From Escherichia phage vB_EcoM_ESCO32: a DNA stretch of 64,000 nt. The position numbers and the translations under genes were made by a program. How positions within the stretch are numbered: the first letter of the stretch is position 1; each line of letters opens with the position of its first letter. Shown here piece by piece: positions 22,592 through 40,742 of this stretch. The DNA is taken from the sequence record OM386658.1; one strand, 5' to 3'. The notes beneath the pieces are model-generated. The model was not told the DNA's origin. It did not search any database and saw nothing but the letters and a program-made list of their open reading frames with translations.

Positions 22592-23068
22592 ATGTCTAAA
22601 CGTTTTGGTCGTAATCAAAAAAGAAAGTTAAGTGCTCAACTAGCAGCTTTGCAAAAAGAGGTTAACACTTTACAAAAAAGTGTTTGTGAACTTAAGGAAC
22701 AAAACCAACTTGAAAAAGAGTGTATCCAGCTTACACAGGAAGTTATTGGTGAGTATTTTCCTTCACTAGTTCCTAAGAAGGTGGCTCTTAGGGAAAATCT
22801 ACCTTTTACCTTGTCCTTAATGCAAGCAAATGATAGATTCCAAACTGAAACTGATGATTTGATGTTTGCAATGCATCAATTACATGGTTTAGAATATACA
22901 GCACAAGTGGATAAACTTCGTAACATGTTATATGTGCGGGTAGAAACACCTAAAGGTGAGACAGTAGCTTTTAATTATAATTTCCAACAGCTACCTGATC
23001 ATATTATTGAACAAATTTTAAAACGAGATTTTGTTCCTATGCTTGTTAAACAAATTAAGAGAGGTTGA
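22592..23068 (+). CDS. hypothetical coiled-coil protein (158 aa)
   Basis: ORF track; AGGGGGAAA RBS; heptad-like N-terminal region. Confidence 0.55.
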   Translation: MSKRFGRNQKRKLSAQLAALQKEVNTLQKSVCELKEQNQLEKECIQLTQEVIGEYFPSLVPKKVALRENLPFTLSLMQANDRFQTETDDLMFAMHQLHGLEYTAQVDKLRNMLYVRVETPKGETVAFNYNFQQLPDHIIEQILKRDFVPMLVKQIKRG

Positions 23069-23069
23069 A

Positions 23070-25844
23070 ATGGCTAAGAAAGAGTTGAGCTTCACTCCGA
23101 CAGAAGAGCAAACAGCTATTAAGGAGGCTTTTCCAGACCATCGCTTTTTAACTATCCAAGCTAAATCTGGGTCAGGCAAAACGTCAACACTTTATTTGCT
23201 GGCTAACAGTACAGAAGATCGCATTCTTTACTTAGCTTTCAATAAAAGCATGGCAGAAGAAGCACGACGTAAGATGCCACTAAATGTAGAATGCCGTACA
23301 TTGCATTCTATTTGCTATCAATTCCTGGATCATCGTTTACGTGCAAAACTGTCACGACCAGAAGGACAGTATGTTAACGTTGCAGGTACAGGTAGTGAGA
23401 TAGCAAAGAAATTTAAGATTAATAATCTTATTGATAAACGAGGGAAAACACTTTTAACTCGTGCTATGATCGGTTTAATGATCAAGCAAACCGTAGGTAA
23501 GTTTGAATTTTCGGATGATCCTTTTATCAGCCGTAAACATTTTCCTAGTGTACATCTTGCAGATATTAAAAGAAAAGGTATTAACGAACACAAACTAATT
23601 ACAGAAGTAGTTAAGTATGCAAAACAATTGTGGCGAGAGCGCATCGATCCTAACACAGACACTTTGATGACGCATGACACCTATGTAAAATTGTTTGAAT
23701 TATCTGGTGCTGATCTTGGTTATGATATTATTTTTGGTGATGAATTCCAGGATGTTAACCCTGCATTCTTATCTATTCTGCGAAATGCTAAATCTGCAAA
23801 ACAAATTGTGGTAGTGGGCGATGAATTCCAATGTGTGTCGGAAAACACGGTACTTAATACCGAGAATGGTCAGGTTACAATGAAAGACCTGCAAATCGGT
23901 GATAAGGTAGAGTCTTATTCTAATGGTAAAGTTACATTTAGAAAAGTAACAAATAAGACTTTATCTACACGTACAAAAGGTAGGAATATTATTACTGCCA
24001 CAGGTAAAACTTTAGATATGACACATAACCATCGTATTTGGGCTTCATCCTATGTTCTGAAAGATGATCAGATGGTGGTATACCTAATGTGGAGGAAAGA
24101 TTTAGGTTTCCGAGTAGGGATCACTAACAAATTCGATGATAAAGAAGGTTTTTCTAAACTGGGGCAACGTACACGTTCTGAAAAAGCACAGAAATTGTGG
24201 GTGTTGGATATTGTTGAAAACCGTGAAGCTGCTATGGAAAAAGAAATGGCATACAGTTTACAATATGGCATTCCTACTTGTGTATTTGAAGCAAGTTCAC
24301 GCGGCATTAATCAAGAAAGGATCAATAACATTTTTGAACAATTCGGACAAAACGGTTTTAAACTTTTAGAGGATAAAGATTATCATTTTGCTTATCCACA
24401 TTGGCACAGCATCAATTGTGCAGTAGATGAAAGAAAAATGTTAACAGTGACTTTGCGAGCACAAGGTTGTAAAGGAACACAAGTTAGTTTTGAGTGGACA
24501 GAAAGTGAAATGTCAATCTATGCTTCACTCATTGAAGCAGGTGTAAGCGTAAGTGTTGCTAAGTTGGAAGGTCGTTACCGTGTACGTAAATATTTCAATT
24601 CTTATCGTGAAGCATTGAGTTTTGCACAAAAGATCCTTGAAATAGTGCCGTTTGCATCTTTAAAAGAATGCATGTCCTCTGTGAACACCGCCAAATATAC
24701 TTTAATTCCGGCGGCGGGTTTGTTTAAAGGCATGTCTGTGTTGGTAAAAGATGGTGATACTGTAACGGCAGAAGAAATTGTGGACATTGTAGATAGTGAA
24801 GGTATCTATTATGATATTGAAGTAGAGGATACTGCTAACTTCTTTGGCAATGAAATTCTTAGCCACAACTGCATTTATCAATTTAGAGGTAGCTCTAATA
24901 TGATGATTGAAACAGCTAAGTATGGGGCAGAGCTTCCATTAACTGCTTGCTTCCGTTTTGGCCCCAAAGTGGCAAACATTGCCAATATGATTTTAAGCGA
25001 TAAAGAACCTTTGCGTCATCCTTTGGTTGGTAAAGGCTTTGATACTGTAGTAGGTAGCTACAAATCAGATGTTGTAGACTATACAAAACCTTACACTATC
25101 ATCTTTCGCAAGAATTTAACCTTGCTTATGGAGGCAATGGATCGTATTGCAGATGGGGAAGAAATTATTATTAACGTAGACACCAGGGATTTTATCTCTA
25201 TGGTAGATAGTGTTAATGCTCTTCGGAGAGGAGATATTGAGAAAGTAAAACATGAAACTGTATTACCTTACGCAGACTGGGATGAATTTGTTGAGTGTGC
25301 AGAGGCTGATCCAGATGCTAAACGCTTGTTAAACATTGTAGTTTCTGGTAAGGCAAACACTATAGCACATACACTTAGAACGCATAGAAATTCTCCTACA
25401 GCAAAAGTCACACTGACTACAGCACATAAGTCTAAAGGTTTGGAGTGGGATCAGGTTATTGTTGCTAATGATTTTCCTTCCAATTATGATAAAAAGACTG
25501 GTGAGTGGGTAGGACTAGAAGAGGCAGAGCGAAACCTACTGTATGTAGCGCATACCCGTTGTGTTAAATGCTTACAATGGAACACAACCGTACAGGAGAT
25601 TATAGATATCAACCGTGTTGCAACAGAGAAAGTACCAACAAGCACCACTTTACCGATCAATGGTATTAAACTTGGTGTATTTGGCGCTGGCACATCTCGA
25701 AAAGCTGTAGAAAAATTTGTTGCAGATTCTTTTGATGGTAACTATAATCATGCACAAGCATATGAGAGTTGGCTAGAGGAAGGTGAAGGTGATTTTTTAG
25801 GTGAAATAAATCTTTTACCAGACATAAATAAACTGGTAAACTAA
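23070..25844 (+). CDS. UvrD/PcrA-like SF1 DNA helicase interrupted by an intein
   Basis: ORF track frame 23031..25844; Walker A AKSGSGKTS; motif III split as VVVGDEFQ / [intein] / CIYQFRGSS; motif VI TTAHKSKGLEWD. Confidence 0.85.
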   Translation: MAKKELSFTPTEEQTAIKEAFPDHRFLTIQAKSGSGKTSTLYLLANSTEDRILYLAFNKSMAEEARRKMPLNVECRTLHSICYQFLDHRLRAKLSRPEGQYVNVAGTGSEIAKKFKINNLIDKRGKTLLTRAMIGLMIKQTVGKFEFSDDPFISRKHFPSVHLADIKRKGINEHKLITEVVKYAKQLWRERIDPNTDTLMTHDTYVKLFELSGADLGYDIIFGDEFQDVNPAFLSILRNAKSAKQIVVVGDEFQCVSENTVLNTENGQVTMKDLQIGDKVESYSNGKVTFRKVTNKTLSTRTKGRNIITATGKTLDMTHNHRIWASSYVLKDDQMVVYLMWRKDLGFRVGITNKFDDKEGFSKLGQRTRSEKAQKLWVLDIVENREAAMEKEMAYSLQYGIPTCVFEASSRGINQERINNIFEQFGQNGFKLLEDKDYHFAYPHWHSINCAVDERKMLTVTLRAQGCKGTQVSFEWTESEMSIYASLIEAGVSVSVAKLEGRYRVRKYFNSYREALSFAQKILEIVPFASLKECMSSVNTAKYTLIPAAGLFKGMSVLVKDGDTVTAEEIVDIVDSEGIYYDIEVEDTANFFGNEILSHNCIYQFRGSSNMMIETAKYGAELPLTACFRFGPKVANIANMILSDKEPLRHPLVGKGFDTVVGSYKSDVVDYTKPYTIIFRKNLTLLMEAMDRIADGEEIIINVDTRDFISMVDSVNALRRGDIEKVKHETVLPYADWDEFVECAEADPDAKRLLNIVVSGKANTIAHTLRTHRNSPTAKVTLTTAHKSKGLEWDQVIVANDFPSNYDKKTGEWVGLEEAERNLLYVAHTRCVKCLQWNTTVQEIIDINRVATEKVPTSTTLPINGIKLGVFGAGTSRKAVEKFVADSFDGNYNHAQAYESWLEEGEGDFLGEINLLPDINKLVN
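23832..24869 (+). mobile_element. intein (346 aa) inside the helicase
   Basis: begins CVSENTVLNTENG (block A), contains TxxH block B (MTHNHRIW) and ends VEDTANFFGNEILSHN followed by +1 Cys; in frame with host protein. Confidence 0.8.
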
Positions 25845-25854: not shown

Positions 25855-26106
25855 GTGGCAGGGTATCATTTGAAGGAGATTAGCAAAGAGGAATATGGTT
25901 CTGTTGCTAAGATTCAAGAAGAGCTTTATGAACTTCAAGATGCTATTGATCAAGATTGCAAGCTGATGCAACTTATTGAGTTATCAGATATTGTAGGCGC
26001 TGTTGAAGGTGTTCTTGAACAGCATTTTCCTGGTATGACGCTTCAAGATTTGATCACTATGTCAAACATTACTAAACGTGCATTCCGCAATGGAGGTCGA
26101 TCATGA
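25855..26106 (+). CDS. hypothetical protein (83 aa)
   Basis: ORF track; GTG start with AAGGGGG RBS. Confidence 0.45.
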   Translation: MAGYHLKEISKEEYGSVAKIQEELYELQDAIDQDCKLMQLIELSDIVGAVEGVLEQHFPGMTLQDLITMSNITKRAFRNGGRS

Positions 26107-26675
26107 ATGTTGCAGTAATAGCTCAAGCTATTGATTACTATGGTCGATTTGCACAAATGTTAGAAGTTCCATATCTCGTGGATGCTGATATACTGGCGTA
26201 TACACTACCAGAAAATAAAGAGGATCGCCCATTAGGGCATCCTAACGGTAAATACTATGTAGCTAGTGCAGAACAATCTTTCCTGCAAATGGAGAAGGAT
26301 GGTTTTGAATTTGCAGTAGGTAATCCGTATATGGCACTAACACCATGTTACCGCACAGAAGAAAATTTAGATGATACCCATTTTAATATTTTCTTGAAAT
26401 TGGAGTTGATTGAGTTCTACCCTGATGCTACAATTGAAGAGTATGCTAACTCTATACGCTGTTTCTTCTCTACTTATTATGGAGTTAAAACATATTTAGT
26501 ACCCACTAATATTGGGGTTGACGTAGAGGATGAATATGGTTTAGAATTAGGTTCATTCGGTATGAGGGAGTCTCCAAGAGGTCATCCTTATATCTATGCA
26601 ACAGGTATTGCGGAGCCTAGGGCTTCACTGGCAATAAACCGTGTTGTAAATAACATTCAAAGCATTAGCAAATAA
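26103..26675 (+). CDS. hypothetical protein with class-II aminoacyl-tRNA-synthetase-like motif 2 (tentative)
   Basis: ORF track 190 aa; CYRTEENLDDTHFNIFLKLELIEF resembles the FRxE...EFxxxE motif 2 of class II synthetase cores; weak, unverified. Confidence 0.55.
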   Translation: MNVAVIAQAIDYYGRFAQMLEVPYLVDADILAYTLPENKEDRPLGHPNGKYYVASAEQSFLQMEKDGFEFAVGNPYMALTPCYRTEENLDDTHFNIFLKLELIEFYPDATIEEYANSIRCFFSTYYGVKTYLVPTNIGVDVEDEYGLELGSFGMRESPRGHPYIYATGIAEPRASLAINRVVNNIQSISK

Positions 26676-26687
26676 AAGGAGAATAGA

Positions 26688-27122
26688 ATGTCTATTGTGA
26701 CACAAATGAAAGCAGATCGTATCTTAGCACGTACAACCGATAAGGGTGCTTTTGCTTTGTTAACTAATATTATTGGTGAGTTTGACCTTGCTCGTACTCA
26801 AAAGGCAAATCTAAACAAATCAGAAGACGATATTATGATTAACATTGTTAAGATTGGTATTGCACACGCTAAAGAGGAACTAGACTCACTTAAGAAAGTT
26901 AATGCCTCCATTAGCAAATGTGAGCGAGCTATGCGTGATATCACCACTCTGGAAAAATATTTGCCAGAAATGCTATCTGAAGATGATCTTCGAGCTATTG
27001 CTGAAGAATTTGCCTTGACAGGCAAGAAAATGCCAGATATGATGAAACACCTTAAAGCAGAGTATCCGAATCAATATGATGGAAAACTTGCTTCTACCAT
27101 TGCAAAAGAAATTTTAAACTAA
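26688..27122 (+). CDS. GatB/YqeY-domain protein
   Basis: ORF track 144 aa; length and C-terminal LEKYLPEMLSEDDLRAIAEEF ... GKKMPDMMKHLKAEYPNQYDGKLASTIAKEIL match the YqeY pattern. Confidence 0.6.
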   Translation: MSIVTQMKADRILARTTDKGAFALLTNIIGEFDLARTQKANLNKSEDDIMINIVKIGIAHAKEELDSLKKVNASISKCERAMRDITTLEKYLPEMLSEDDLRAIAEEFALTGKKMPDMMKHLKAEYPNQYDGKLASTIAKEILN

Positions 27123-27139: not shown

Positions 27140-28090
27140 ATGATTGCATTTTACGCTAATAAACTGGAAGTTAAAAAAGCAGCAGAAGAGATGGGTATCC
27201 TGCATATTCTTAACGAAGCAATTCACAAGAGTTTTGGTTACACAACTGAAGCAGAAATCAATGATCTGATTCACAGTGTTAATGATTTGTTCTTCTACCC
27301 TAACTTTCTACAGCAGTTAGATGGTTGTGGATTTGAATATATGGAGCTTCATCCTGAATATACATTTATGGAAGTAACACCTGAAGGTTTTCTGGAGATT
27401 ATTCGTACTGAATATCTTGCTAAAGAGGATAAAGAAAAAGATATGGCTGAAAAAGTACAACTGACTGTGCATAATACGTGTTTCCTGGATACTGAGGCCA
27501 CGGAAGAAAATATTAATTATCTGCTTTCCGTTTGTAATCCTCGTTGTCCACAACCACATTGGAAAAATGCAGATCATTATCTAATGTATTCAACTGAAGA
27601 AAACATTACTTTCTTCGATGAAAACAGTGGTATTAATGGTGCACATAAGAATTCTCCATATAGGAAAGATCGGTTTGTAGTTGATGTAAAAACATTTACT
27701 AAACTGTTTGATGAGTATTATTCAAAAAATGAAAGTAAGACTGAATCTTCACCAAAACCACGTTTTCGCCGACCGCGTAAACCTGTGCCTACTCGTTCTG
27801 TAAGTTATGTTCGTATCATTTACACTACACAGCAGGTATATACTCTTAAGAACGTAAGTGCTCTTACTGTACAAGAAGATGCAATTAATATTGTGCGCAA
27901 TAATGTTATTACAGAGGGTATTGAGGAAAAGATTATGTCTGTTATCGATCCTAAACTTGTTATGGCAATCATTATTAATGAACCAAAAGGTGTAACAACA
28001 TTGTTCCGAAATATTCACGGTACTTGGGAAACTCAAGTTGACGGTTTGACTTCTGACGGTTGTACACGTATTACCAAAAACCTTGACTAA
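27140..28090 (+). CDS. hypothetical protein (316 aa)
   Basis: ORF track; AGAAGGAGAA RBS; terminator downstream. Confidence 0.65.
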   Translation: MIAFYANKLEVKKAAEEMGILHILNEAIHKSFGYTTEAEINDLIHSVNDLFFYPNFLQQLDGCGFEYMELHPEYTFMEVTPEGFLEIIRTEYLAKEDKEKDMAEKVQLTVHNTCFLDTEATEENINYLLSVCNPRCPQPHWKNADHYLMYSTEENITFFDENSGINGAHKNSPYRKDRFVVDVKTFTKLFDEYYSKNESKTESSPKPRFRRPRKPVPTRSVSYVRIIYTTQQVYTLKNVSALTVQEDAINIVRNNVITEGIEEKIMSVIDPKLVMAIIINEPKGVTTLFRNIHGTWETQVDGLTSDGCTRITKNLD

Positions 28091-28137: not shown

Positions 28138-28166
28138 AAAGCCAGCTTAATGCTGGCTTTTATTTT
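28138..28166 (+). terminator. rho-independent terminator
   Basis: AAAGCCAGCttaaTGCTGGCTTT followed by TATTTT. Confidence 0.6.
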
Positions 28167-28179
28167 CCACGGAGGATTA

Positions 28180-29979
28180 ATGACCCAAAAACTATATGAG
28201 GATGTAATCGGATTCCTCGAACAAACATCCGAAGAATTTACTCGTGAAAATGCAAACAAACCTGCAATGATTGTTAATACTCACCGAGACTTACTAGCAG
28301 GTATCCTAAGCAAGCACATGGCAATGACCCATATTTTACCGGAAGATCTGGCAGAATGGCATAAGAGTGGGTATGGTCACATTCACGATTTAGATTATTT
28401 ACTCTCACCTCTAACTAATTGTTGCCTGGTAAATTACCAAGATATGCTTGAGAACGGTTTCCGTATTGGTAATGCGCATATTGAAAAACCAAAATCTATT
28501 GGCGTAGCAACTACTGTCCTAACTCAAATTATTCAAGCAGTAGCTTCTAGCCAATATGGTGGACAAACTTGTGCACATGTTGATACTGGGCTTAGTCAAT
28601 ACGTTAAAGCAAGTTTTAATAAAATATATGCCGATGTTGGCGATTATGATATTGCTATGCGTATGGTAGATAAACAGGTCTATGATGCAATGCAAACTTT
28701 AATCTACCAGGTGAACACTCTAATGAGTGTAAATGGTCAGTCACCTTTTATAACAATTAGTTTAGGTTTGGATACCTCTGCTTTTGGTAGAATGATCACT
28801 AAAAACTACCTAATGGTGCACAAACAAGGATTGGGAAAAGATAGGGTAACTCCTGTGTTTCCTAAAGTTATCTTCTTCTTGGAAGATGGTGTTAACATGA
28901 AAGCTGGCGATCCAAATTATGATTTGAAGCAACTGGCAATGGAGTGTTGTGCTGAACGCATTTATCCTGATTTTATCTCTGTACCTTTAAACAAAGAAGT
29001 TACAGGATCTTCAGATGGTCGCGTTACAAGCATGGGTTGCCGTAGCTTCTTGTCATACTATGCAACAGAGCAAGGTGAAAAATATGATGGTCGTTTCAAC
29101 TTAGGCGTAGTTTCTTTAAACTTACCTATCATTGCAGCAGAGTCCCGTGAAAAGGGCATCTTATTTACTGAACTGTTGGAACAACATATGGAGATGGCGT
29201 ATAAGGCACATATGCTACGTGTTAACCGTATTAGACATACCAAAGCATCTCAAAACCCTACATTGTTTATGGAAGGGGCTTTAGCTCGACTAGAAGCTAA
29301 TGAAGAGATTGGTAAACTATTCGAAGGTGGTTATGCCTCTATTAGTATCGGTTATGTAGGTTTAGCAGAAGCTATGGAGATTTTATACCCAGGTAACACC
29401 AATCCAAAAGCAATGGGTAAAAACATCCTTCAATATATGAAGGATATCTGTGGCACATTTAAAGAACGTTCTGGTTTAGCTTTTAGTTTGTATGGAACAC
29501 CAGCAGAATCCTTGTGCTATAAATTTGCCAAAGCATTAAATGATCGCTATCCTGGTTCTATTGATCGTGACTACTTGACAAACTCTTTCCATCAACCTGT
29601 GTGGATGCACACTACCCCGTTCCAAAAGTGGGATTATGAGGAAGGTTTTGCACAAATCAGTAATGGTGGGAACATAGGTTATGTAGAAACACCAAACCTT
29701 AAAAATAACTTGCAAGCACTGGAAACTCTTGTAGATTATGCCTACAACAAAATTCCTTATTTTGGCGTGAACCAACCTGTAGATCAGTGTTTCAAATGTG
29801 GTTTTCATGGTGAATTTAAGGCAACAGCTAAAGGCTTCGAGTGTCCAAGTTGTGGCAATCATGAGGAAGAATCTATATCTGTAATCAGAAGAGTGTCAGG
29901 ATATCTTTCTGCCCCTAACTCTCGCCCTTATAATAAAGGTAAAATGCAAGAGGTATTAGAAAGGGAGAAACATTTTTGA
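28180..29979 (+). CDS. nrdD: anaerobic ribonucleoside-triphosphate reductase (class III RNR)
   Basis: ORF track frame 28150..29979; start at ATG with GGAGGA RBS; C-terminal zinc ribbon CFKCGF...CPSCGN and glycyl-radical motif RVSGYL. Confidence 0.9.
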   Translation: MTQKLYEDVIGFLEQTSEEFTRENANKPAMIVNTHRDLLAGILSKHMAMTHILPEDLAEWHKSGYGHIHDLDYLLSPLTNCCLVNYQDMLENGFRIGNAHIEKPKSIGVATTVLTQIIQAVASSQYGGQTCAHVDTGLSQYVKASFNKIYADVGDYDIAMRMVDKQVYDAMQTLIYQVNTLMSVNGQSPFITISLGLDTSAFGRMITKNYLMVHKQGLGKDRVTPVFPKVIFFLEDGVNMKAGDPNYDLKQLAMECCAERIYPDFISVPLNKEVTGSSDGRVTSMGCRSFLSYYATEQGEKYDGRFNLGVVSLNLPIIAAESREKGILFTELLEQHMEMAYKAHMLRVNRIRHTKASQNPTLFMEGALARLEANEEIGKLFEGGYASISIGYVGLAEAMEILYPGNTNPKAMGKNILQYMKDICGTFKERSGLAFSLYGTPAESLCYKFAKALNDRYPGSIDRDYLTNSFHQPVWMHTTPFQKWDYEEGFAQISNGGNIGYVETPNLKNNLQALETLVDYAYNKIPYFGVNQPVDQCFKCGFHGEFKATAKGFECPSCGNHEEESISVIRRVSGYLSAPNSRPYNKGKMQEVLEREKHF

Positions 29980-30446
29980 ATTACGCCGGATATGAACCTG
30001 TTGACATGCTCAACGGTGACGGTGTAAGATGCTCTTTGTGGGTGAGCGGTTGTAGCCACGGTTGCCGTGGCTGCTTTAACCAGAAAGCCTGGTCGTATAA
30101 CTACGGACAAGAGTTCACTACTGAAACATTAGATCTTATCTTGAAAGATTTATCTCGACCTTTCATTAAAGGATTAACAGTTTTAGGTGGTGAACCTCTT
30201 GACAAAGAGAACATTGACACTGTAGCGTATGTTCTTGAGAAGGTAAGAGATTGTTTTGGAAACAAAAAAGATATTGTCTTATACACAGGATATCTTTTTG
30301 AAGAAATTCCAGAGAAAATTAAAAAACTGGTTGACATAGTGATAGATGGTAAGTATGATATGAATCAACCAACAACGAAACGTTATAGAGGCTCAGATAA
30401 TCAACGAATGTGGGTTAAGAAAGACAACATTTGGGAATCTGACTAA
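29976..30446 (+). CDS. nrdG: anaerobic RNR activating enzyme (radical SAM)
   Basis: ORF track 156 aa; TTG start overlapping nrdD stop; N-terminus NYAGYEPVDMLNGDGVRCSLWVSGCSHGCRGCFN parallels E. coli NrdG as recalled. Confidence 0.85.
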   Translation: MNYAGYEPVDMLNGDGVRCSLWVSGCSHGCRGCFNQKAWSYNYGQEFTTETLDLILKDLSRPFIKGLTVLGGEPLDKENIDTVAYVLEKVRDCFGNKKDIVLYTGYLFEEIPEKIKKLVDIVIDGKYDMNQPTTKRYRGSDNQRMWVKKDNIWESD

Positions 30447-31876: not shown

Positions 31877-32032
31877 ATGCTTACAGATGATGAATATAAA
31901 GCTATCCAGGAAAAACTAACGGAGCTTGAAATTCTTGCTGTCAATATTAAAGATCAATCACATGCTGGAAAGTTACTACAGCAAGAGATCAATAAAATTA
32001 AGCAGATGATATTCTTTTGGACGGAGGATTAA
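31877..32032 (+). CDS. small hypothetical protein (51 aa)
   Basis: gap ORF MLTDDEYKAIQEKLTELEILAVNIKDQSHAGKLLQQEINKIKQMIFFWTED with AAGGGGAAGAAA RBS. Confidence 0.45.
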   Translation: MLTDDEYKAIQEKLTELEILAVNIKDQSHAGKLLQQEINKIKQMIFFWTED

Positions 32033-32034
32033 AA

Positions 32035-32691
32035 ATGACTGTTAAGCATATTTCTTTTGATGTATGGAATACTCTTATTACTGCTAATCCTTTGTATGCA
32101 GAAGAACGCAACAAGGTTATTGCCGAGTATGCCTCTTGTTCTGAGGTAGAAGCAACTACCGTATATAAAGAGGTAAAAACTCTCCTGGATTTAAAAGCAG
32201 AAAAAGGTATTTGTGGAACATCTAGGCATGCTTGGGAAACACTTTCTGCTCATTTGAACATTGATCTTGATAAGGTGGATGGGTTAAAAAGAGACTGTTT
32301 AGCAATGTTTATAAAACATCCTCCAACATTAAACCCTGAACTTTGCAAGAAGTTGGAAGAGCTAAGTTCAACCTATTCTTTGAGTATTAAAAGCAATACT
32401 AATTTTGTACCTGGTAGTTTTTTAGCTGTATATTCTGGCTTGACAAAATTACCATTCGACTTTATGCATTTTTCTGACGAGTTTTGCTTGTGTAAACCAG
32501 ATCCTAGGTTTTTTAAACTCTCTTTTGATGAAATGGTAACGTTTGATCTCGCACCAGAGGAGATCTTACACGTTGGAGATAGTTTGATCTATGATGGAAA
32601 AGCTGTTGACATAGGGATGAAGTTCTGTCATATTATTAATCCAGAAGACTTGTTGGCTAAACTTAAAAAAGAGGAACTTATTAATGCGTAA
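32035..32691 (+). CDS. HAD-like hydrolase (tentative)
   Basis: ORF track frame 32017..32691; start at ATG with GGAGGA RBS; ISFDVWNTLI (motif I-like, second Asp not conserved) and HVGDSLIYDGKA (motif IV-like). Confidence 0.55.
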   Translation: MTVKHISFDVWNTLITANPLYAEERNKVIAEYASCSEVEATTVYKEVKTLLDLKAEKGICGTSRHAWETLSAHLNIDLDKVDGLKRDCLAMFIKHPPTLNPELCKKLEELSSTYSLSIKSNTNFVPGSFLAVYSGLTKLPFDFMHFSDEFCLCKPDPRFFKLSFDEMVTFDLAPEEILHVGDSLIYDGKAVDIGMKFCHIINPEDLLAKLKKEELINA

Positions 32692-33541
32692 TCAAATTCA
32701 ACATTTTGCTAATACTTTTACTAACCTGAAGGAAGCAAAATTTAACATTGCAGATTATTCCAAGCTAAAGTTTGGTAGTAACCAGGCAGCAAAAAGAATG
32801 GGGCGCATTCTGGCTGAAAGTTTCTTTTCCAAGTATGAAGAACGACTGGTAAATGAAAGTTTTGTTGTTATTCCATCTCCATATAACTATGTGAAAAATG
32901 CAGCTACAGTGTTATCTGAACATTTTGTAGATCACCTCAACTACCTAATCTCTATCAAAGGAGGTAAAGCAGTGGAGTGGGATATCGTTCATCGTAAAGT
33001 GAGCTATATCAATGATTATGGATTTCTTAGCAAAGAAGATCGTAAGGCTTTGATCGATGGTGACACTTTCTCTATCAATCGTGATTTCTGGGGTAATAAA
33101 ACTCTGATTTTCATTGATGATGTTAATATTACAGGAACGCACGAAGAAAAACTTATTGAAATTTTAGACAAAGAAGGTGTTGAAAACGATACGTTTTTCC
33201 TGTACTTTGCAAAGTATGAAGGTACAGAAGCCAATACCGAAGCTGCACTTAACTTCAACTATATCAATAACCTGGCAGCTTTTATTAAAATGATTAAACA
33301 AGAAACTGATGCTAAATGTTTGGTTCGTCCTATTAAGTATCTAATGAGTCAAAGCGAAGTTGATTTTAAAATTGCACTTTCACAGCTTCCTTTGTATTAT
33401 GTAGAACAACTGTTCTTTGGTTGCCTTGCAGAAGGCTACAATAACATTGAAAAATATAAAGAGAACTTTGATTTCCTACGTCAATTTTTTGAAAGCAACA
33501 TTATCAACAAATCTAATGTTAAAGGGGATTATTATGTCTAA
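32684..33541 (+). CDS. phosphoribosyltransferase-like protein
   Basis: ORF track 285 aa; PRPP-binding-type motif KTLIFIDDVNITGTHEEK. Confidence 0.65.
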   Translation: MRNQIQHFANTFTNLKEAKFNIADYSKLKFGSNQAAKRMGRILAESFFSKYEERLVNESFVVIPSPYNYVKNAATVLSEHFVDHLNYLISIKGGKAVEWDIVHRKVSYINDYGFLSKEDRKALIDGDTFSINRDFWGNKTLIFIDDVNITGTHEEKLIEILDKEGVENDTFFLYFAKYEGTEANTEAALNFNYINNLAAFIKMIKQETDAKCLVRPIKYLMSQSEVDFKIALSQLPLYYVEQLFFGCLAEGYNNIEKYKENFDFLRQFFESNIINKSNVKGDYYV

Positions 33542-34250
33542 TAAAGTAATGACTTTCGGAGATCCTATCACCAATATTACAGAAAAAGATTTTGGGCGTG
33601 TAGCAACAGATAAAGATGGTGTCTTAAGAATTCGTGTACAAGGTATTACAGCACAGGATGAATATGCTGTGTATGTTTCAGGTCTTAACTATATTGATGA
33701 TCGCATTACACAAAACTTTGCACTGATCGGTGGTGTAGAGAAAATGTATTGGGAAGATGAAATTGTAACAAGTTATCCGGCAGGTATCATTGAGGTATAC
33801 GGTGATCTTTTAGCAGCAGCCGAGAGAGGCGATATAGACGCTATAGCACACTGCTGTAACTGTTTTTGCACTATGGGTAGTGGTATTGCACCAAAAATTA
33901 AAAGCAAGTGGCCTGGTGCGTTTAAAGCAGATTGTGCCACTAAACGTGGTGATTATAAAAAATTAGGTACGTTTACCAAATATATAGAAAACAATTTGAC
34001 AATTTATAATTTATATGGACAATATGGTTATAGTCGTCGTGAGGAAGGTAAGCGTGACCTGAATTATGAAGCTATCTACAATGCGTTAGATAGTATGGGA
34101 GACGATGTTGTATCTTCAGGCGGTAAAATTGTAGGTTTACCAATGCTTGGTTGTGGTTTGGCTGGAGGTTCTTGGAGTATTGTAAAACTTATGATCGAAG
34201 AAACTCTAGTAAACAAAGGTTTAAATGTAATTGTTTACAAACTGAAATAA
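33534..34250 (+). CDS. macro-domain-like protein (ADP-ribose binding or hydrolase)
   Basis: ORF track frame 33417..34250; start at ATG with AAAGGGG RBS; DAIAHCCNCFCTMGSGIAPKI and IVGLPMLGCGLAGGSW resemble macro-domain glycine-rich motifs. Confidence 0.6.
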   Translation: MSNKVMTFGDPITNITEKDFGRVATDKDGVLRIRVQGITAQDEYAVYVSGLNYIDDRITQNFALIGGVEKMYWEDEIVTSYPAGIIEVYGDLLAAAERGDIDAIAHCCNCFCTMGSGIAPKIKSKWPGAFKADCATKRGDYKKLGTFTKYIENNLTIYNLYGQYGYSRREEGKRDLNYEAIYNALDSMGDDVVSSGGKIVGLPMLGCGLAGGSWSIVKLMIEETLVNKGLNVIVYKLK

Positions 34251-34259
34251 GGAGAAAGT

Positions 34260-34466
34260 ATGGCAGGTGTTTTAGCAGTATTAGGTTGTTTTATTGTTGT
34301 GTTTTTGATTGTGTTAATCCCTAGTTGGCTACTGCTTTTAGCATACAACTATATGATTGACATTATCGGCTTAGACTGGCATCATGTTCCTGTAACGTTT
34401 TGGAGTGTAGTCTGTGTGACGTTCATTCTTGCGGTACTTCGTGGTATCTTTCAATCTAACAAATAA
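34260..34466 (+). CDS. small membrane protein (68 aa)
   Basis: ORF track; two hydrophobic helices. Confidence 0.5.
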   Translation: MAGVLAVLGCFIVVFLIVLIPSWLLLLAYNYMIDIIGLDWHHVPVTFWSVVCVTFILAVLRGIFQSNK

Positions 34467-34480
34467 GAGAGGATTTTTAT

Positions 34481-34729
34481 ATGCGTAAAGTAAATGTTGA
34501 AGTGCTTGAAAAATTTAGAAACACTCGTGATTGTACTATCGGCAAGGTTTACGAGGCTATTCTCCTTGAAGATGGAGATCAAGTTCCTGCCCCGTATCAC
34601 GCCTTTAATGGTCAAATCAGCAAAGTGGAAGGTGGTCTTGCTATTTGCTTTATTGATGACGTAGGTGATGCTGTAGCTTTCCCTGTCATTAACAAAGAAG
34701 ATAAACTTAAAATTACAGAACTGAACTAG
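34481..34729 (+). CDS. hypothetical protein (82 aa)
   Basis: ORF track; AGAGAGGA RBS. Confidence 0.55.
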   Translation: MRKVNVEVLEKFRNTRDCTIGKVYEAILLEDGDQVPAPYHAFNGQISKVEGGLAICFIDDVGDAVAFPVINKEDKLKITELN

Positions 34730-34788
34730 TTGACTTTCTTTAAAAACAGTTTATAGTATAAGACATAGAGCGGAGGATTGTCCTCCGC
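34730..34788 (+). promoter_or_regulatory. promoter plus leader stem-loop cassette (plus-strand copy) upstream of terC
   Basis: TTGACT-16 bp-TATAGT then CATAGAGCGGAGGAttgTCCTCCGC; same architecture as the minus-strand early cassettes. Confidence 0.55.
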
Positions 34789-34806
34789 ATTAAAGAGGAG
34801 AAAAGA

Positions 34807-35784
34807 ATGCAACTGGGTTTCCCAATTATTGATGTGGTTGTTTTAGTGGGTATTTTAGTCTTGTCGATTTGTATTGACTTCTTTGGACACAGAGAAAACA
34901 AAGAAATTTCATTTAAATCTGCAATTGGCTGGTCAATTTTCTGGATTGGGGTATCATTAGCCTACTATGGTTTTGTATACTTCCAACACGGTGCTGATTT
35001 TGCGAGCTTGTTCTTGAGTGGGTATGTGTTGGAGAAATCTCTTTCTGTAGATAACTTAGTAGTATTTGTAGCAGTATTCGCAAGTTTTGGTATTAAAAGC
35101 ACACACTTGCAGCACAAGATTCTACTTTGGGGTATTGCAGGTGCGATTGTCTTCCGAGGTGTGTTTGTAGCAGTAGGTACTTACTTGTTGAGTTTGGGCT
35201 GGTATGTTAATATCTTCTTCGGTGCTGTCATCCTTTTCTGTGCGGCTAAAATGGTATTCGCTGGAGATAATGATGCAGAAGTTGATTACTCTAAACACTG
35301 GGCTACTCGCATTGTTCGTAAGCTGTTCCCTGTATCTGATCAGATGGATGGTGAGAAGTTCTTCACAATCAAAAATGGTGTTCGTGTAGCAACTCCGGCT
35401 CTGGTTTGTGTGTTTGTAATGGAAATGGTTGACGTAATCTTTGCAGTAGACTCTGTTCCAGCAGTAATTGCAGTGACACAAGAACCTCTGCTGGTGTTCT
35501 CTTCGATGCTCTGTGCAATCTTAGGTTTACGTGCTCTGTTCTTTGTTCTTAGTGTTGCACTGAAGTATTTGGTTCATCTGGAGAAAGCAGTTATCGTAGT
35601 CCTGGTGTTTGTGGGTGTAAAACTGATGTATCACCCGTTTGCAGAAACTCTGCACGCAAAAGTGAGTTTCCTGCCAGCACACATTGACCCGACGATCAGT
35701 ATGTATATTGTGTTAGGTACTCTTGGGCTGGGTGTTCTTGCAAGTTTAATCTTCCCTGAAAAAGAAGACCAGGCTGTTGCTTAA
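34807..35784 (+). CDS. terC: TerC-family integral membrane protein
   Basis: ORF track 325 aa; multiple TM helices; TerC-type motifs LEKSLSVDNLVVFVAVF and VDVIFAVDSVPAVIAV. Confidence 0.85.
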   Translation: MQLGFPIIDVVVLVGILVLSICIDFFGHRENKEISFKSAIGWSIFWIGVSLAYYGFVYFQHGADFASLFLSGYVLEKSLSVDNLVVFVAVFASFGIKSTHLQHKILLWGIAGAIVFRGVFVAVGTYLLSLGWYVNIFFGAVILFCAAKMVFAGDNDAEVDYSKHWATRIVRKLFPVSDQMDGEKFFTIKNGVRVATPALVCVFVMEMVDVIFAVDSVPAVIAVTQEPLLVFSSMLCAILGLRALFFVLSVALKYLVHLEKAVIVVLVFVGVKLMYHPFAETLHAKVSFLPAHIDPTISMYIVLGTLGLGVLASLIFPEKEDQAVA

Positions 35785-35790
35785 TTCATT

Positions 35791-35813
35791 AAGCCCCTTC
35801 GGGGGCTTTATTG
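35791..35813 (+). terminator. rho-independent terminator
   Basis: AAGCCCCttcgGGGGCTT followed by TATTG. Confidence 0.55.
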
Positions 35814-35823
35814 AGGTGATCTG

Positions 35824-36030
35824 ATGGTGGTTTTACGTGTTCTTTGGATTCTGTTTGAAAATATTTGTTTTGCTCTAGGGTTGTTTTGTTTGATTTTTAT
35901 CTTGACAACATATATTGATAACCATACAATTACTATCAACAGGAACGGAGAACAGATGTATTGTTTCTCTAGGGATTTTAAAAATTGTGTTGAGATTTTA
36001 AATGAGAGGGTTACAAATGAAAAACATTAA
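35824..36030 (+). CDS. possible small membrane protein (68 aa)
   Basis: ORF track; GAGGTG RBS; hydrophobic N-terminus. Confidence 0.35.
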   Translation: MVVLRVLWILFENICFALGLFCLIFILTTYIDNHTITINRNGEQMYCFSRDFKNCVEILNERVTNEKH

Positions 36031-36607
36031 ATCTTTTATTGTTGCAGTTGTTTTAGGTAGTGCATTGCTGGTAGGTTGTGATGATTCTGAAAATGTACAA
36101 AATCAACGTTACCAACAAACACCAAATCAGATGGTAGATGAACAATATGTAAATCAGCCTGCACCTCAAGTTGTTCAAGCAGCACCTGCACAACCTTCAA
36201 CAGTTGTTGTGCAAGGAGGCGGCAGTGGTTCTTCTGGCGTAGGTGAGTTTGCTACAGGTATGCTTCTTGGTCATATGTTGAGTGGTAATAGTGGCGGTGG
36301 TGGTTATAGAGATGGCGGTAGCAATACAACAATTATCAATAACAACGCTGCTCCTACAACTAATAGTAAAGCATATACAACACAAAAGCATAGGTTTTAT
36401 GATAAACAAGGGAATACATATACAACCACTAAACAAAACACAATTAAGCAGCAAAGTGTACAAACGTATTCACGCCCATCAACAACAAAAGTGAATAGTG
36501 ATTACTCTGCTCGTAAGTCTTACTCAAGTCCTATTAGCTCTTATAGTAAGTCTTCGAAAAGTTATTCTTCGTCGAAACGTAGTTTTAGTAGCTCACGTCG
36601 TCGTTAA
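36017..36607 (+). CDS. lipoprotein with Ser/Tyr/Lys-rich low-complexity tail
   Basis: ORF track frame 36002..36607; start at MKNIKSFIVAVVLGSALLVGC (lipobox LVGC); C-terminal SYSKSSKSYSSSKRSFSSSRRR. Confidence 0.6.
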   Translation: MKNIKSFIVAVVLGSALLVGCDDSENVQNQRYQQTPNQMVDEQYVNQPAPQVVQAAPAQPSTVVVQGGGSGSSGVGEFATGMLLGHMLSGNSGGGGYRDGGSNTTIINNNAAPTTNSKAYTTQKHRFYDKQGNTYTTTKQNTIKQQSVQTYSRPSTTKVNSDYSARKSYSSPISSYSKSSKSYSSSKRSFSSSRRR

Positions 36608-36642
36608 TAATTTAATACAGATTAAATAAGAAGGAGAAACAG

Positions 36643-37494
36643 ATGAAACTAGAAGTTGGTAAAGTGTATCGCCTGGAAGGTTGGATCTTTAATCAAGAAA
36701 TTCTTGAGAAGAATAAAGATGGTTTTGAGTTTGTTGGTACTACCAAGGAAAGTATGCACAATGACGAATACTGTAAATTCGTTGGTAAAAATACAGGTCA
36801 AGAACAATTTTGCTTTAAGAGCGCAATCGGTGATTATGCTTCTGTAATGCCAACACCAGAAAAGACTTCGAAGCAATATACTGTCTTTGGTGTAAAACTT
36901 GAAGAACTTGTAGAACACCCACGTTTTGAAGAGTTCAAGGTTGCTGCAATGCGCAAGCATTCTGAAATTAAAATACATAATTTGTTTGATTTAGAAGATC
37001 GGTTTGATATCTTTATGTATGATCGCAGGGAAAAGCATTTTGATGCAACGACTTCAAAATTTGCTGCAACAGAGGATATTAAAATCCTTGATGTTGATAC
37101 CTTTCTTGAGAGTGTATCGTTTGTATTCATTCCTAAATACAAAAAACGTAGTGATCATAAACGTGTGAAAGGAACTCCTCGTAAAAAACGTACTGTAAAC
37201 AAAGCAACTTTGCACTTCACTTCTGGTGATAAATATACTCTCAAAGGGTTTGAAAGTGTTTTGTATGATGCTGGAACGGGTAATATCAAGTTTATCATTA
37301 AGGCAACCTACAAAGGTACGGTATTGCACGAAGAGGCTGTTACACTACCTGTATTCGATATCTCTCGTGTTGAGGTACGGGGTGTTAAAGAGTCCTTCGA
37401 TCTGGATTTCTTAACCGCTAATGATACTGGTTATGTTAATCTGGAAGCAGATGGAGCATTTATTACTACAAATTATTTAGATATGTTTGTTTAA
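36643..37494 (+). CDS. hypothetical protein (283 aa)
   Basis: ORF track; AAGGAGAAA RBS. Confidence 0.65.
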   Translation: MKLEVGKVYRLEGWIFNQEILEKNKDGFEFVGTTKESMHNDEYCKFVGKNTGQEQFCFKSAIGDYASVMPTPEKTSKQYTVFGVKLEELVEHPRFEEFKVAAMRKHSEIKIHNLFDLEDRFDIFMYDRREKHFDATTSKFAATEDIKILDVDTFLESVSFVFIPKYKKRSDHKRVKGTPRKKRTVNKATLHFTSGDKYTLKGFESVLYDAGTGNIKFIIKATYKGTVLHEEAVTLPVFDISRVEVRGVKESFDLDFLTANDTGYVNLEADGAFITTNYLDMFV

Positions 37495-37562
37495 TACTTA
37501 ACTTGTGTTATGATGGTGGTACAGAGGTATCACCATTTACTAAAGAATATGGAGGAAAATGA

Positions 37563-38666
37563 ATGTCCAGTCCTTTTATCAGTGCCGTAAAAAGCAAACC
37601 GTCTGAAATGAGTGTATTCACGGCAACAACAGAAAAAAGTAAGTCTTTGTTTGCTCCAAGTGCTATGGATGCAAGCCCTGTATATGCCCCTGCTGTTGCA
37701 CGACCTGTACAAATGCTGCCTCCAATGTCTCGTGAAGAGATTGAACAAGTTGGTGCTGATGCAGGACTTACTCTTCGTAACCTTAATGCTGAAGTGCTTA
37801 AACACCAACGTTCATCTCAGGGGGATGAAATGAGTGAACGTTTAACTGCACTTATTAAGCAAGCAAAGCAACTTGATCCTAACTCTATTAAACAATCTAA
37901 AGGCTTAGGTAAACTAGTTAAGAAAGTATTAGGTATGAAAGAAGATTTGTTTGGTGAATTTGACACCATCAATAATCGTATTGAAGGTTTGGTAAAGACA
38001 CTACAAACAGATTTGAAAAAAGAAGAAGATTCTTTACGATATCTGCAACGTTTAGAAGAGGCTATTGCAAAATATGCTCTTAGCTTAAACAGGGATATAG
38101 AGCTTCTAACAGCTACTTATGAAAAAGAAGAAGTTCGCCTTAATACACTACCTGAAAATGAAGTAGAAGAACGTCAACGTACTCGTGATACTATGGATCT
38201 GCTTGAAATTCGTATTGCAGACCTGAAAGCCTTGCGTTTACTGTGTGTTCAGATGGGGCCACGTGTACAAAGTATGCAGAAAGTATCTGCAAGTTTGATG
38301 CGATCAGCCCGTAATATTGTGAATAATGTTATTCCTGCTTACTCTGCAAACTTTTCTATGTATATTGAAAGTCTACGCCAGAAGAAAGCAGCAGATACAC
38401 AGAACAATGTACTGAATGAGTTTAATGCTGCTATTGCAATGGGTAGTGATCTGGCTGCACAAAACCAAATTGAAGCTACACAACTTGCTAATCGTCAAGT
38501 ATTGGATATTGAGACATTACGTCGCGATCAAGAAAACTTAGTTAAAATGTTGGAAGAAACTAATCGGATCAACACTGAAGCCCGTGCTGCTCGTATTGAT
38601 TACATTCAGGAAGTGCAATCTCTTGAAGATGGTATGATTCAAACTGTTAAACGTGGTCTACTTTAA
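37563..38666 (+). CDS. telA: TelA-like (toxic anion resistance family) protein, tentative
   Basis: ORF track 367 aa; long alpha-helical protein of TelA size in a TerC/TerD neighbourhood; assignment rests mainly on context. Confidence 0.5.
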   Translation: MSSPFISAVKSKPSEMSVFTATTEKSKSLFAPSAMDASPVYAPAVARPVQMLPPMSREEIEQVGADAGLTLRNLNAEVLKHQRSSQGDEMSERLTALIKQAKQLDPNSIKQSKGLGKLVKKVLGMKEDLFGEFDTINNRIEGLVKTLQTDLKKEEDSLRYLQRLEEAIAKYALSLNRDIELLTATYEKEEVRLNTLPENEVEERQRTRDTMDLLEIRIADLKALRLLCVQMGPRVQSMQKVSASLMRSARNIVNNVIPAYSANFSMYIESLRQKKAADTQNNVLNEFNAAIAMGSDLAAQNQIEATQLANRQVLDIETLRRDQENLVKMLEETNRINTEARAARIDYIQEVQSLEDGMIQTVKRGLL

Positions 38667-38679
38667 GGAGAAATATATT

Positions 38680-38886
38680 ATGAATATTAAAATTTACAAA
38701 CTGTCTGGTTCTATGATCGCTGTCCAGTACGACAATGAAGATCGTTATGTTCTCCTCCAGGATGCTTGGTTAGATGATCCTAATGTATTTACTGTCCTGC
38801 GAGAACTACGTTCTGTCTATACCTATTCTTCTAAAGATGGTTTTGATAGTTCAACGATGGAATTGGTAAAAGAGGAGAATGTGTAA
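38680..38886 (+). CDS. hypothetical protein (68 aa)
   Basis: ORF track frame 38653..38886; start at ATG with AAGGAGAAA RBS. Confidence 0.5.
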   Translation: MNIKIYKLSGSMIAVQYDNEDRYVLLQDAWLDDPNVFTVLRELRSVYTYSSKDGFDSSTMELVKEENV

Positions 38887-39086
38887 TGAATAAAGATATT
38901 CACTTAACTCGTGAAGAATTACAAACCATTATGGAAGATGCTTTCATTGATGGTTGGAAACAAGGTCAAGAGTCAGATTGGTATGATGCCGAAGACTTTT
39001 TGTATTATCATATGACTGCACCTGTAGACGAGCAAACACACTCTGAAACAACTTTGGCTATAATTGATCTTAAGGCTGGTGTATAA
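38886..39086 (+). CDS. hypothetical protein (66 aa)
   Basis: ORF track; TAATG coupling; contains LTREELQTIMEDAFIDGWKQG motif shared with next gene. Confidence 0.5.
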   Translation: MNKDIHLTREELQTIMEDAFIDGWKQGQESDWYDAEDFLYYHMTAPVDEQTHSETTLAIIDLKAGV

Positions 39087-39649
39087 TGGGATGTTTTAGT
39101 TTCTTGTGCAAAGAATCTGGTAATGCTGCTCTTTCTACCTCTTTCGATGGCTCTCCTTGCTACCTATTTCTTTTGAAAGGTGGTAAAGTTGTTGAAGAGA
39201 TGTATGGCAATTATGATAGCTATGGTAGTGTTTTCTCTAACGAAGAAGATAAACATGGCAATCGTAAAAGATTCAAGTGGTCTATGTCTTGGGAAGAAGT
39301 TTGTAATTTGATGTTCTCTTCCGATCTTGGAGATGGGATTGCTCTGGTATTAGAAGAGCACTTTACAGGCGAGATCCCAACAGAAAGATCTGAAGAAGAT
39401 CCTAACCAGGGTTGGGGTGATGGGGAAGAAGATCCAGATTGCTTCTTCAGCACTGAAAATAATAAATTTAAATGTGTTGACAATCCTTACCACAAAGTGC
39501 ATAATACTTGCATTGAGACAGAAGAAGACTCAAAGCTAGAAATTGAAGATGATTTAGTTGTAACTATCTCTTTAAACGAGTTGCAAAAAATCACTAGAGA
39601 GGCTTTCTATTTAGGTTGGAAAGTAGGTAAAGGAGGAGATAGTGCTTAA
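39086..39649 (+). CDS. hypothetical acidic protein (187 aa)
   Basis: ORF track; C-terminal LNELQKITREAFYLGWKVG repeats the motif of the preceding gene. Confidence 0.55.
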   Translation: MGCFSFLCKESGNAALSTSFDGSPCYLFLLKGGKVVEEMYGNYDSYGSVFSNEEDKHGNRKRFKWSMSWEEVCNLMFSSDLGDGIALVLEEHFTGEIPTERSEEDPNQGWGDGEEDPDCFFSTENNKFKCVDNPYHKVHNTCIETEEDSKLEIEDDLVVTISLNELQKITREAFYLGWKVGKGGDSA

Positions 39650-39911: not shown

Positions 39912-39912
39912 T

Positions 39913-40707: not shown

Positions 40708-40714
40708 AAAACGC

Positions 40715-40742
40715 TTGACTTTGTAGAAAAGATTAGTAAAAT
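40715..40742 (+). promoter_or_regulatory. sigma70-type promoter upstream of terD
   Basis: TTGACT-16 bp-TAAAAT. Confidence 0.45.

Follow-up and report, generated by a model that had tools for sequence, protein, structure and literature searches.

Introduction

What would a bacteriophage do with a severely shortened aminoacyl-tRNA synthetase, and with which protein does this synthetase work? The question is raised by two neighboring genes in a 64,000-nucleotide stretch (here called the window) of Escherichia phage vB_EcoM_ESCO32 (sequence record OM386658.1), one encoding a 190-amino-acid protein with class II synthetase features and the next a 144-amino-acid protein of the YqeY/GatB-tail type. 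A preliminary description made from the DNA letters had proposed that they form a translationally coupled, tRNA- or amino-acid-directed ligase system. Both genes are present and real: the 190-amino-acid product belongs to PHROG 4806 (E value, 6e-70) and the 144-amino-acid product to PHROG 1460 (E value, 1.5e-36), and because of these matches and of 98 to 99% identity across phi92-like genomes, the open reading frames (ORFs) are genuine and not chance occurrences. The first encodes the minimal catalytic core of an enzyme descended from bacterial-type seryl-tRNA synthetase (SerRS). Its obligate partner is a MazG/HisE-type gene, as seen from near-constant adjacency, in either order, and from gene fusions.

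A minimal SerRS core with an intact active site

The AlphaFold model of the 190-amino-acid protein (37-sequence alignment) had a mean predicted local distance difference test (pLDDT) value of 95.1 and contained the antiparallel β-sheet of the class II catalytic fold. All three class II signatures were identified, namely, the conserved proline of motif 1, motif 2 (fRxE ... FxKxE, here TPCYRTE...FLKLE), and motif 3 (GxGxxxxR, here ATGIAEPR). The preliminary description had rested on motif 2, quoting the peptide CYRTEENLDDTHFNIFLKLELIEF (residues 82 to 105; nucleotides 26346 to 26417), and had suggested looking for motif 3 and ATP-binding residues. The class II likeness is real and reaches beyond motif 2, with motif 3 present and the predicted ATP- and serine-binding residues intact. 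An unrelated fold and a missing YqeY profile match had been named as the outcomes that would tell against that description; the fold was of class II, and the YqeY profile was matched by the neighboring protein.

When the protein was searched on its own, Pfam returned only a sub-threshold match to tRNA-synt_2d (E value, 0.16), NCBIfam returned nothing, and a single-sequence search of PDB sequences returned nothing. The family profile matched Aquifex SerRS by sequence (E value, 9.7e-5), and hhalign against E. coli SerS (E value, 3.3e-6) gave an alignment covering motif 1, with its VPYLV unchanged, as well as motif 2 and the TAE/SAE motif. Residues 14 to 129 aligned to residues 186 to 322 of E. 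coli SerRS (EcSerRS), and the C-terminal half could be placed in register with the REISS and NGSGLAVGR segments of SerS (Table 1).

Conservation was calculated from 195 family representatives with a mutual identity of 50% or less. S55 and E57, as well as R84, F97, K99, and E101, were 100% conserved, and T167, P172, and R173 were 99% conserved. In EcSerRS bound to seryl-sulfamoyl-adenosine, the seryl moiety is contacted by T237, E239, R268, E291, and S391, and F287 stacks against the adenine (10.1101/586255). The counterparts of these residues in the phage protein are S55, E57, R84, E101, T167, and F97, respectively, while R173 corresponds to R397. The seryl-adenylate contact residues, together with E148, S151, and R173, were thus conserved at 99 to 100%, a pattern of purifying selection that argues for a working adenylate-forming enzyme using serine or a near analogue. 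The most likely ligands of the protein are ATP and serine (or a closely related compound), with an aminoacyl-adenylate as the product. In this respect, the ligase activity envisaged in the preliminary description appears well founded; the part of that proposal that joined it to YqeY found no support, as set out below.

Bacterial-type SerRS enzymes (E. coli SerS, Thermus thermophilus 1SER, and Aquifex 2DQ3) have ∼430 residues, whereas the phage core has 190. It starts at the motif 1 region, and the N-terminal coiled-coil arm for the variable arm of tRNA-Ser is absent; also missing are the C-terminal tail and ∼60 residues of SerRS insertions located between motifs 2 and 3. The motif 2 loop is 6 residues shorter than in SerRS and acidic (EENLDDTH, versus the Arg-rich SEAGSYGRDTRGLIRMH in E. 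coli), and the full-length basic form of this loop, which contacts the acceptor stem, was not found. The protein has a pI of 4.5 and a net charge of −13. Synthetase cores that lack anticodon-binding modules and pass an activated amino acid to an acceptor other than a tRNA 3′ end are also represented by EpmA/PoxA, AsnA, and GluQRS. However, these descend from other parents (LysRS, AspRS, and class I GluRS), are 300 amino acids or longer, and in no case are coupled to a MazG-type enzyme.

An exhaustive profile search identified 1,593 clusters of the synthetase family at 50% identity (1,064 with E values of 1e-30 or better), nearly all with members of 175 to 200 amino acids. Using tblastn, the gene was found in 272 isolate phage records (Escherichia, 111; Acinetobacter, 61; Caulobacter, 13; and others), with carriers among phi92-, phAPEC8-, and phiTE/CR3-like phages, Erwinia phages, T4-like Acinetobacter phages, phiCbK-like Caulobacter phages, and Microcystis phages. 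Across 185,579 species genomes there were only 15 matches, all on metagenome-bin contigs and with no informative cellular operon, and the family is therefore essentially phage specific.

The obligate partner is a MazG/HisE-like protein

The preliminary description had regarded the synthetase and YqeY genes as translationally coupled. They are separated by 12 nucleotides, and a separate AGGAG ribosome-binding site serves the YqeY gene; the junction that predicts strict coupling lies instead on the other side, where an ATGA overlap joins the synthetase start to the stop codon of an 83-amino-acid gene that had gone unmentioned. The identical 4-nucleotide overlap was found in 23 related loci.

The 83-amino-acid protein is predicted to be a MazG/HisE-like all-alpha nucleotide pyrophosphohydrolase. 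Its model consists of three long helices (pLDDT, 90.7), and the twin acidic ExxE(x)nExxD motifs lie on this helical bundle. Among 33 diverse members, E22, E23, E26, E42, and D45 were invariant, and D29 was present in 30. The best Pfam and PDB sequence matches include HisE, with the N-terminal (S/G)Y motif region covered. The gene is 45 to 54% identical among the window, Vibrio phage 2.275.O, and a marine contig, and is better conserved than the synthetase.

Using a profile of the 83-amino-acid protein, a homologue was detected in 86 of 89 synthetase loci: directly upstream in 57, directly downstream in 12, 0.1 to 1.4 kb upstream in 11, and fused with the synthetase in one ORF in 6. Natural synthetase-MazG fusions of ∼260 amino acids were also present among the library representatives (P0143, P0160, and P0221). 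In the reverse direction, a search starting from the 83-amino-acid protein found the synthetase adjacent in all 10 loci recovered, and the genus counts in isolate genomes were nearly equal (272 synthetase and 260 MazG-like records). No third conserved partner emerged from BLAST clustering of ∼1,800 neighboring ORFs or from Pfam analysis of 148 immediate neighbors. Recurrent neighbors comprised RlaP (12 loci), a CCA-type nucleotidyltransferase (NTase; 6 loci), and scattered nucleotide or RNA-repair genes. Since the neighbors are heterogeneous apart from RlaP, the MazG-like/synthetase pair constitutes a self-contained module.

Two known arrangements were considered and rejected. In amino acid:[carrier protein] ligases (Bradyrhizobium Bll0957; PDB 3MEY), the synthetase is of ∼300 amino acids and comes from the atypical, methanogen-type SerRS. 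The 83-amino-acid partner is not a carrier protein, as its sole candidate attachment residue, S44, is Ser in 27, Ala in 5, and Cys in 1 of the 33 members and lies inside the ExxD metal motif. In histidine biosynthesis, HisZ, a class II-synthetase-like protein, and HisE likewise act on consecutive nucleotide steps. A HisZ/HisG relationship was rejected, as the signature and best profile matches are those of SerRS and not HisRS and the catalytic residues are kept; HisG was not among the 25 commonest neighbor families of the 148 neighbors scanned.

The MazG-like domain also occurs in other fusions. In locus L007 (2406 to 6579), the gene immediately preceding the mini-synthetase joins it to a shikimate kinase SKI domain (Pfam E value, 7e-21), and a DHQ-synthase gene is found 2 kb upstream, placing aroB/aroK-like material on a module-bearing contig. 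In four megaphage contigs (Table 1), it carries a cupin-like N-terminal domain of ∼200 amino acids with an invariant HDH ... H pattern. This domain had no Pfam or PDB sequence match and is not homologous to the C-terminal extension found in T4-like Acinetobacter phages.

Probable relationship to the counterdefense protein Atd1

Ho et al. screened ORFs flanking phage NTase genes (bioRxiv 10.1101/2022.06.09.495361). In that work, Atd1 of Pectobacterium phage PcCB7V is a MazG-like protein that hydrolyzes ppGpp (apparent Km, ∼50 μM), is inactive on ribonucleoside triphosphates (rNTPs) and c-di-GMP, and decreased cellular (p)ppGpp. It shielded cells from TIR-STING toxicity and raised T5 plating tenfold on a retron-TIR host. 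The supplement lists the PcCB7V NTase QQG33502.1, and phage NTases of this kind are described there as making competitor cyclic dinucleotides (10.1101/2022.06.09.495361).

In the PcCB7V genome, QQG33502.1 (Pfam RlaP) is found two genes away from QQG33500.1, an 86-amino-acid protein annotated as a phosphoribosyl-ATP pyrophosphatase. The flanking ORFs scanned contained no other MazG/PRA-PH-like protein, and QQG33500.1 shares 50% identity along its full length with the 83-amino-acid protein of the window (E value, 5e-30). Beyond a two-gene insertion lies a 198-amino-acid "seryl-tRNA synthetase," with a CCA-adding enzyme and a peptidyl-tRNA hydrolase upstream. Because QQG33500.1 is the sole MazG-like ORF found by the NTase gene and shares this identity, the MazG-like partner probably belongs to the Atd1 family, and the 83-amino-acid protein, which is of like size and has the same twin acidic motifs, is a probable Atd1 orthologue. 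The word "synthetase" does not occur in the available text of the Atd1 paper (10.1101/2022.06.09.495361), and no published description of a MazG-like/synthetase module was found in the literature. The module therefore appears to be undescribed, while its component genes carry known homology labels.

The PcCB7V insertion (locus L163, 5355 to 6277) consists of two extra ORFs, one of 73 amino acids on the opposite strand and one of 208 amino acids, between the MazG-like gene and the synthetase. The related phage phiTE has these two genes side by side, and the extra ORFs may be a mobile insertion. RlaP NTases stand beside the module in L001, L006, L017, L163, and other loci, where it may sit in an anti-defense island.

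Proposed function and alternatives

On balance, and tentatively, the pair is read here as a nucleotide-directed, two-enzyme counterdefense module and not as a tRNA ligase. That both proteins act as one unit on a nucleotide rather than on tRNA is inferred with fair confidence; that the target is the host alarmone system is put forward with lower confidence. Full-length synthetases, including SerRS, can use the aminoacyl-adenylate as a donor of AMP to the polyphosphate of another nucleotide, which yields Ap4A, or ApppGpp when the acceptor is ppGpp. ApppGpp is referenced in the literature as a stress nucleotide of Salmonella. The synthetase core would apply its Ser-AMP chemistry to a nucleotide acceptor, either by adenylyl transfer to the 5′-polyphosphate of an alarmone, as the full-length enzymes do, or by passing the seryl group to a nucleotide. 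Cleavage of the same nucleotide, ahead of the synthetase step or following it, would fall to the pyrophosphohydrolase subunit, and the outcome would be suppression of the host alarmone or starvation signaling behind abortive infection. ATP and serine sites alone would suffice for such chemistry, and a MazG-type enzyme would be a natural partner to cleave its product or substrate. A more specific version, in which a single enzyme system carries out seryl-adenylate chemistry on a nucleotide, capping or converting (p)ppGpp or making a seryl-nucleotide, with the hydrolase finishing the reaction, is somewhat unlikely.

Several observations weigh against a nucleotide-directed module. Atd1 alone hydrolyzed ppGpp in vitro and protected cells without any synthetase, so that the partner is not strictly required for this activity, and the model does not explain what the synthetase contributes. 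The identity of Atd1 with QQG33500.1 is very probable but not certain. The acidic loop and surface of the synthetase would disfavor a polyanionic nucleotide acceptor. Serine specificity is deduced from the conserved contacts, and the pocket may have shifted, as such pockets have to Gly or Ala in the SerRS-like carrier-protein ligases. The genomic context also counts here: tRNA genes were present within 6 kb in 19 of 60 synthetase loci (a raw count with no random-window baseline), the module is embedded in arrays of 12 to 18 tRNA genes in L033, L034, L045, L053, and L061, and some loci adjoin a CCA-adding enzyme, peptidyl-tRNA hydrolase, RlaP, or RNA ligase. The tRNA-array context fits a tRNA-directed role equally well. 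Finally, in PcCB7V the MazG-like and synthetase genes are split by the two-gene insertion.

Among the alternatives, a pathway to a seryl- or otherwise amino-acid-modified nucleotide is unlikely. The MazG-like enzyme would make a nucleoside monophosphate (NMP or dNMP) from the triphosphate (NTP or dNTP) and the synthetase would ligate serine to it, the product being a nucleic acid modification or a metabolite. Phage MazZ-PurZ is a precedent, and the logic parallels that of MazZ-PurZ or of T4 gp56-gp42. The sole invariant partner is a nucleotide pyrophosphohydrolase, with fusions in existence, and nucleotide-metabolism neighbors are common (NrdD/NrdG here; ribonucleotide reductase, ThyA, and dCMP deaminase elsewhere); the fusion of a SKI P-loop kinase to the MazG-like domain in L007 and the cupin-like fusions in four megaphage loci also speak for it. 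However, no conserved downstream kinase or transferase was found beside the pair, and the carriers are very diverse: we know of no exotic modification common to the T4-like, phi92-like, phiCbK-like, and cyanophage carriers. The probable orthologue Atd1 was inactive on rNTPs in vitro.

It is quite unlikely that the protein is a true minimal SerRS that recharges host or phage tRNA-Ser, leaving less uncharged tRNA for RelA, while the MazG-like enzyme removes existing (p)ppGpp in parallel. Limitation of seryl-tRNA, as imposed by serine hydroxamate, is a classical trigger of the stringent response, and the intact SerRS-type active site, the setting among tRNA arrays, CCA-adding enzyme, and peptidyl-tRNA hydrolase, and the depletion of (p)ppGpp by Atd1 all suit this scenario. 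Against it stand the complete absence of the coiled-coil arm that recognizes tRNA-Ser and the shortened, acidic form of the loop that should contact the acceptor stem in a strongly acidic protein; moreover, the repeated occurrence of fusions would have no explanation if the two enzymes merely worked in parallel.

It is very unlikely that the core is a sensor or regulatory subunit without catalysis of its own, resembling HisZ or the HisRS-like part of GCN2, which would modulate the MazG-like hydrolase upon binding of serine, ATP, or uncharged tRNA. The motif 2 and motif 3 arginines, the Mg-binding glutamate, and all catalytic residues are 99 to 100% conserved over ∼195 divergent sequences, a pattern not known for HisZ-type pseudoenzymes, and Atd1 is active alone.

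The YqeY gene is an independent neighbor

The 144-amino-acid protein was correctly recognized as a YqeY/GatB-tail protein in the preliminary description: residues 38 to 143 matched positions 34 to 143 of Pfam YqeY (PF09424; E value, 5.3e-7) with 30.3 bits, above the curated gathering score of 27, and its homologues also carry PF09424. Only this domain was found by Pfam, with no GatB catalytic (cradle) domain and no NCBIfam GatB match, and no Gat family was present among the 25 commonest of the 44 Pfam families matched by ORFs of the window. Since the GatB catalytic domain is lacking, the protein amounts to a YqeY domain on its own rather than an amidotransferase, and the label "tRNA amidotransferase" given to it in public records overstates its content.

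YqeY genes were found in 151 isolate records (Vibrio, 52; phi92-like Escherichia, 45; and others), a set largely different from the 272 records with the synthetase. At least 66 Escherichia and 61 Acinetobacter phage records carry the synthetase without a detectable YqeY, although the search was centered on the phi92 protein and very distant YqeYs could escape it. In the phAPEC8-like sister group, where the synthetase is 74 to 83% identical, another gene lies downstream and YqeY is not adjacent. Within the 89 synthetase loci, YqeY was adjacent only in phi92-like phages, and in L004 it was two genes upstream. Conversely, only 2 of 48 viral YqeY loci, both near-identical and phi92-like, had a synthetase within 6 kb. 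The functional pairing suggested in the preliminary description finds no support in these distributions. The two genes thus stand together by an accident of gene order peculiar to one lineage or, at most, as an addition made in that lineage, and YqeY is an independent accessory gene that stands beside the MazG-like/synthetase pair only in phi92-like phages.

The YqeY domain appended to Deinococcus glutaminyl-tRNA synthetase (GlnRS) is a paralogue of the GatB tail (PMC1865053). In 15 of 40 phage YqeY loci, tRNA genes were located no more than 6 kb away. The Deinococcus appendage reportedly enhances tRNA binding, GatB tails are likewise described as binding tRNA, and the proximity to tRNA arrays fits a tRNA-binding role of this kind for phage YqeY, independent of the synthetase. 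The two families may share a looser tRNA theme, each lying near tRNA arrays in approximately one-third of loci. A split tRNA-directed ligase, in which YqeY would supply tRNA binding to the mini-synthetase in trans, is highly improbable, for adjacency and co-transcription in phi92-like phages, the Deinococcus precedent, and this common proximity to tRNA arrays are set against the rarity of the combination in the surveyed loci, largely disjoint host and genus distributions, and the absence of any synthetase-YqeY fusion. Two YqeY loci (L119 and L126) lie inside arrays of 11 to 13 tRNAs, and a third (L118) adjoins a tmRNA gene.

Organization and annotation of the locus

The 25.8- to 28.2-kb region shares 98.6 to 99.0% identity with more than 50 (55 counted) phi92-like coliphage genomes of the genus Justusliebigvirus, including VivaForever, phi92 (gp194 to gp198), and JLBYU50. 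The features identified are listed in Table 1. The terminator-like hairpin probably closes one transcription unit consisting of the helicase, MazG-like, synthetase, YqeY, and 316-amino-acid genes.

Table 1. Features of the MazG-like/synthetase locus in the window and related fusions on other contigs
Feature	Position	Strand	Remarks
MazG/HisE-like gene, 83 amino acids	25855..26106	+	GTG start; AGGGGG ribosome-binding site
Putative metal-binding acidic motifs of the MazG-like protein, KIQEELYELQDA (E22, E23, E26, D29) and ELSD (E42, D45)	25909..25989	+	
ATGA overlap of 83-amino-acid stop and 190-amino-acid start (predicted translational coupling)	26103..26106	+	From sequence
Minimal class II (SerRS-derived) enzyme, predicted adenylate forming, 190 amino acids	26103..26675	+	ORF
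Motif 1, LEVPYLV (P23)	26160..26180	+	Aligns to E. coli SerRS VPYLV at residue 195; P23 96% conserved
Putative amino-acid-binding TxE-type motif, YVASAEQSF (S55, E57)	26256..26282	+	Aligns to SerRS TAEVP (T237, E239)
Motif 2 with short acidic loop, ALTPCYRTEENLDDTHFNIFLKLELI (R84, E86, F97, K99, E101)	26334..26411	+	Aligns to SerRS TPCFRSE...HQFDKVE
ELGSFGMR (E148, S151, R155)	26544..26567	+	Equivalent of SerRS REISS (E355, S358)
Motif 3, IYATGIAEPRASLAI (T167, R173)	26592..26636	+	In register with SerRS NGSGLAVGR (S391, R397)
Stand-alone YqeY/GatB-tail protein, 144 amino acids	26688..27122	+	Own AGGAG ribosome-binding site
Terminator-like hairpin	28138..28160	+	Consensus match only
Cupin-like/MazG-like fusions	L040 5070-6017; L052 4953-5858; L054 5175-6002; L055 6567-7436		

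PADLOC gave no match for any of the four genes submitted. Rfam and ARAGORN identified no RNA gene within the window, so that a tRNA or tRNA-like partner is not encoded locally.

Homology labels for these genes are already public but are inconsistent and in part misleading. In records of relatives, the 190-amino-acid gene is variously called "histidyl tRNA synthetase," "putative seryl-tRNA synthetase," and "putative tRNA synthetase," and besides the amidotransferase label, the 144-amino-acid gene appears as "GatB/YqeY domain-containing protein" and "putative aspartyl/glutamyl-tRNA synthetase."

Upstream of the module, a UvrD-type helicase of 937 amino acids (23031 to 25844, + strand) carries an intein-like insertion (GDEFQ/CVSENTVL ... 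LSHN/CIYQFRG). Related records annotate it as "intein-containing UvrD," and the JLBYU50 homologue has only 578 amino acids, which suggests that the insertion is missing there. Located 3′ of YqeY and co-transcribed with it, the 316-amino-acid gene (27140 to 28090, + strand) is labeled "ribonucleotide reductase" in PHROGs and GenBank (PHROG 15930; E value, 3.6e-184). No Pfam or NCBIfam domain was found in it, and the label looks unsupported; genuine NrdD and NrdG follow at 28150 to 30446. A Ter-stress-type cluster at ∼32000 to 46000, with Pfam matches to TerC, TelA, vWA-TerF-like, PRTase ComF-like, CapR, and NADAR, is unusual for a lytic phage. Judged by ORF length against the JLBYU50 annotation, the TerC-like gene is probably at 34807 to 35784 and the TelA-like gene at 37563 to 38666. 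Four records named as Campylobacter phages (MG065639, MG065645, MG065656, and MG065689; host, C. jejuni) are 98.8% identical to the region of the module and probably reflect contamination or mislabeling.

Implications

The noteworthy feature of this locus is the pairing itself: a near-minimal SerRS core, a synthetase paralogue with a proposed noncanonical role, is locked to an Atd1-type MazG/HisE pyrophosphohydrolase and is widespread in large phages. The conflicting synthetase and YqeY annotations matter for the curation of therapeutic-phage genomes. If the module works as proposed, these proteins of 175 to 200 residues would be, to our knowledge, the smallest natural class II synthetase-type enzymes with a complete active site. 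A core of this size would inform views of how small a working synthetase can become and of the range of synthetase paralogues that use acceptors other than tRNA. The validated counterdefense protein Atd1 would be one half of a widespread two-enzyme unit and would so far have been studied without its obligate partner, and large phages would possess a dedicated means to erase or rewrite the stress or immune nucleotide signals of their hosts.

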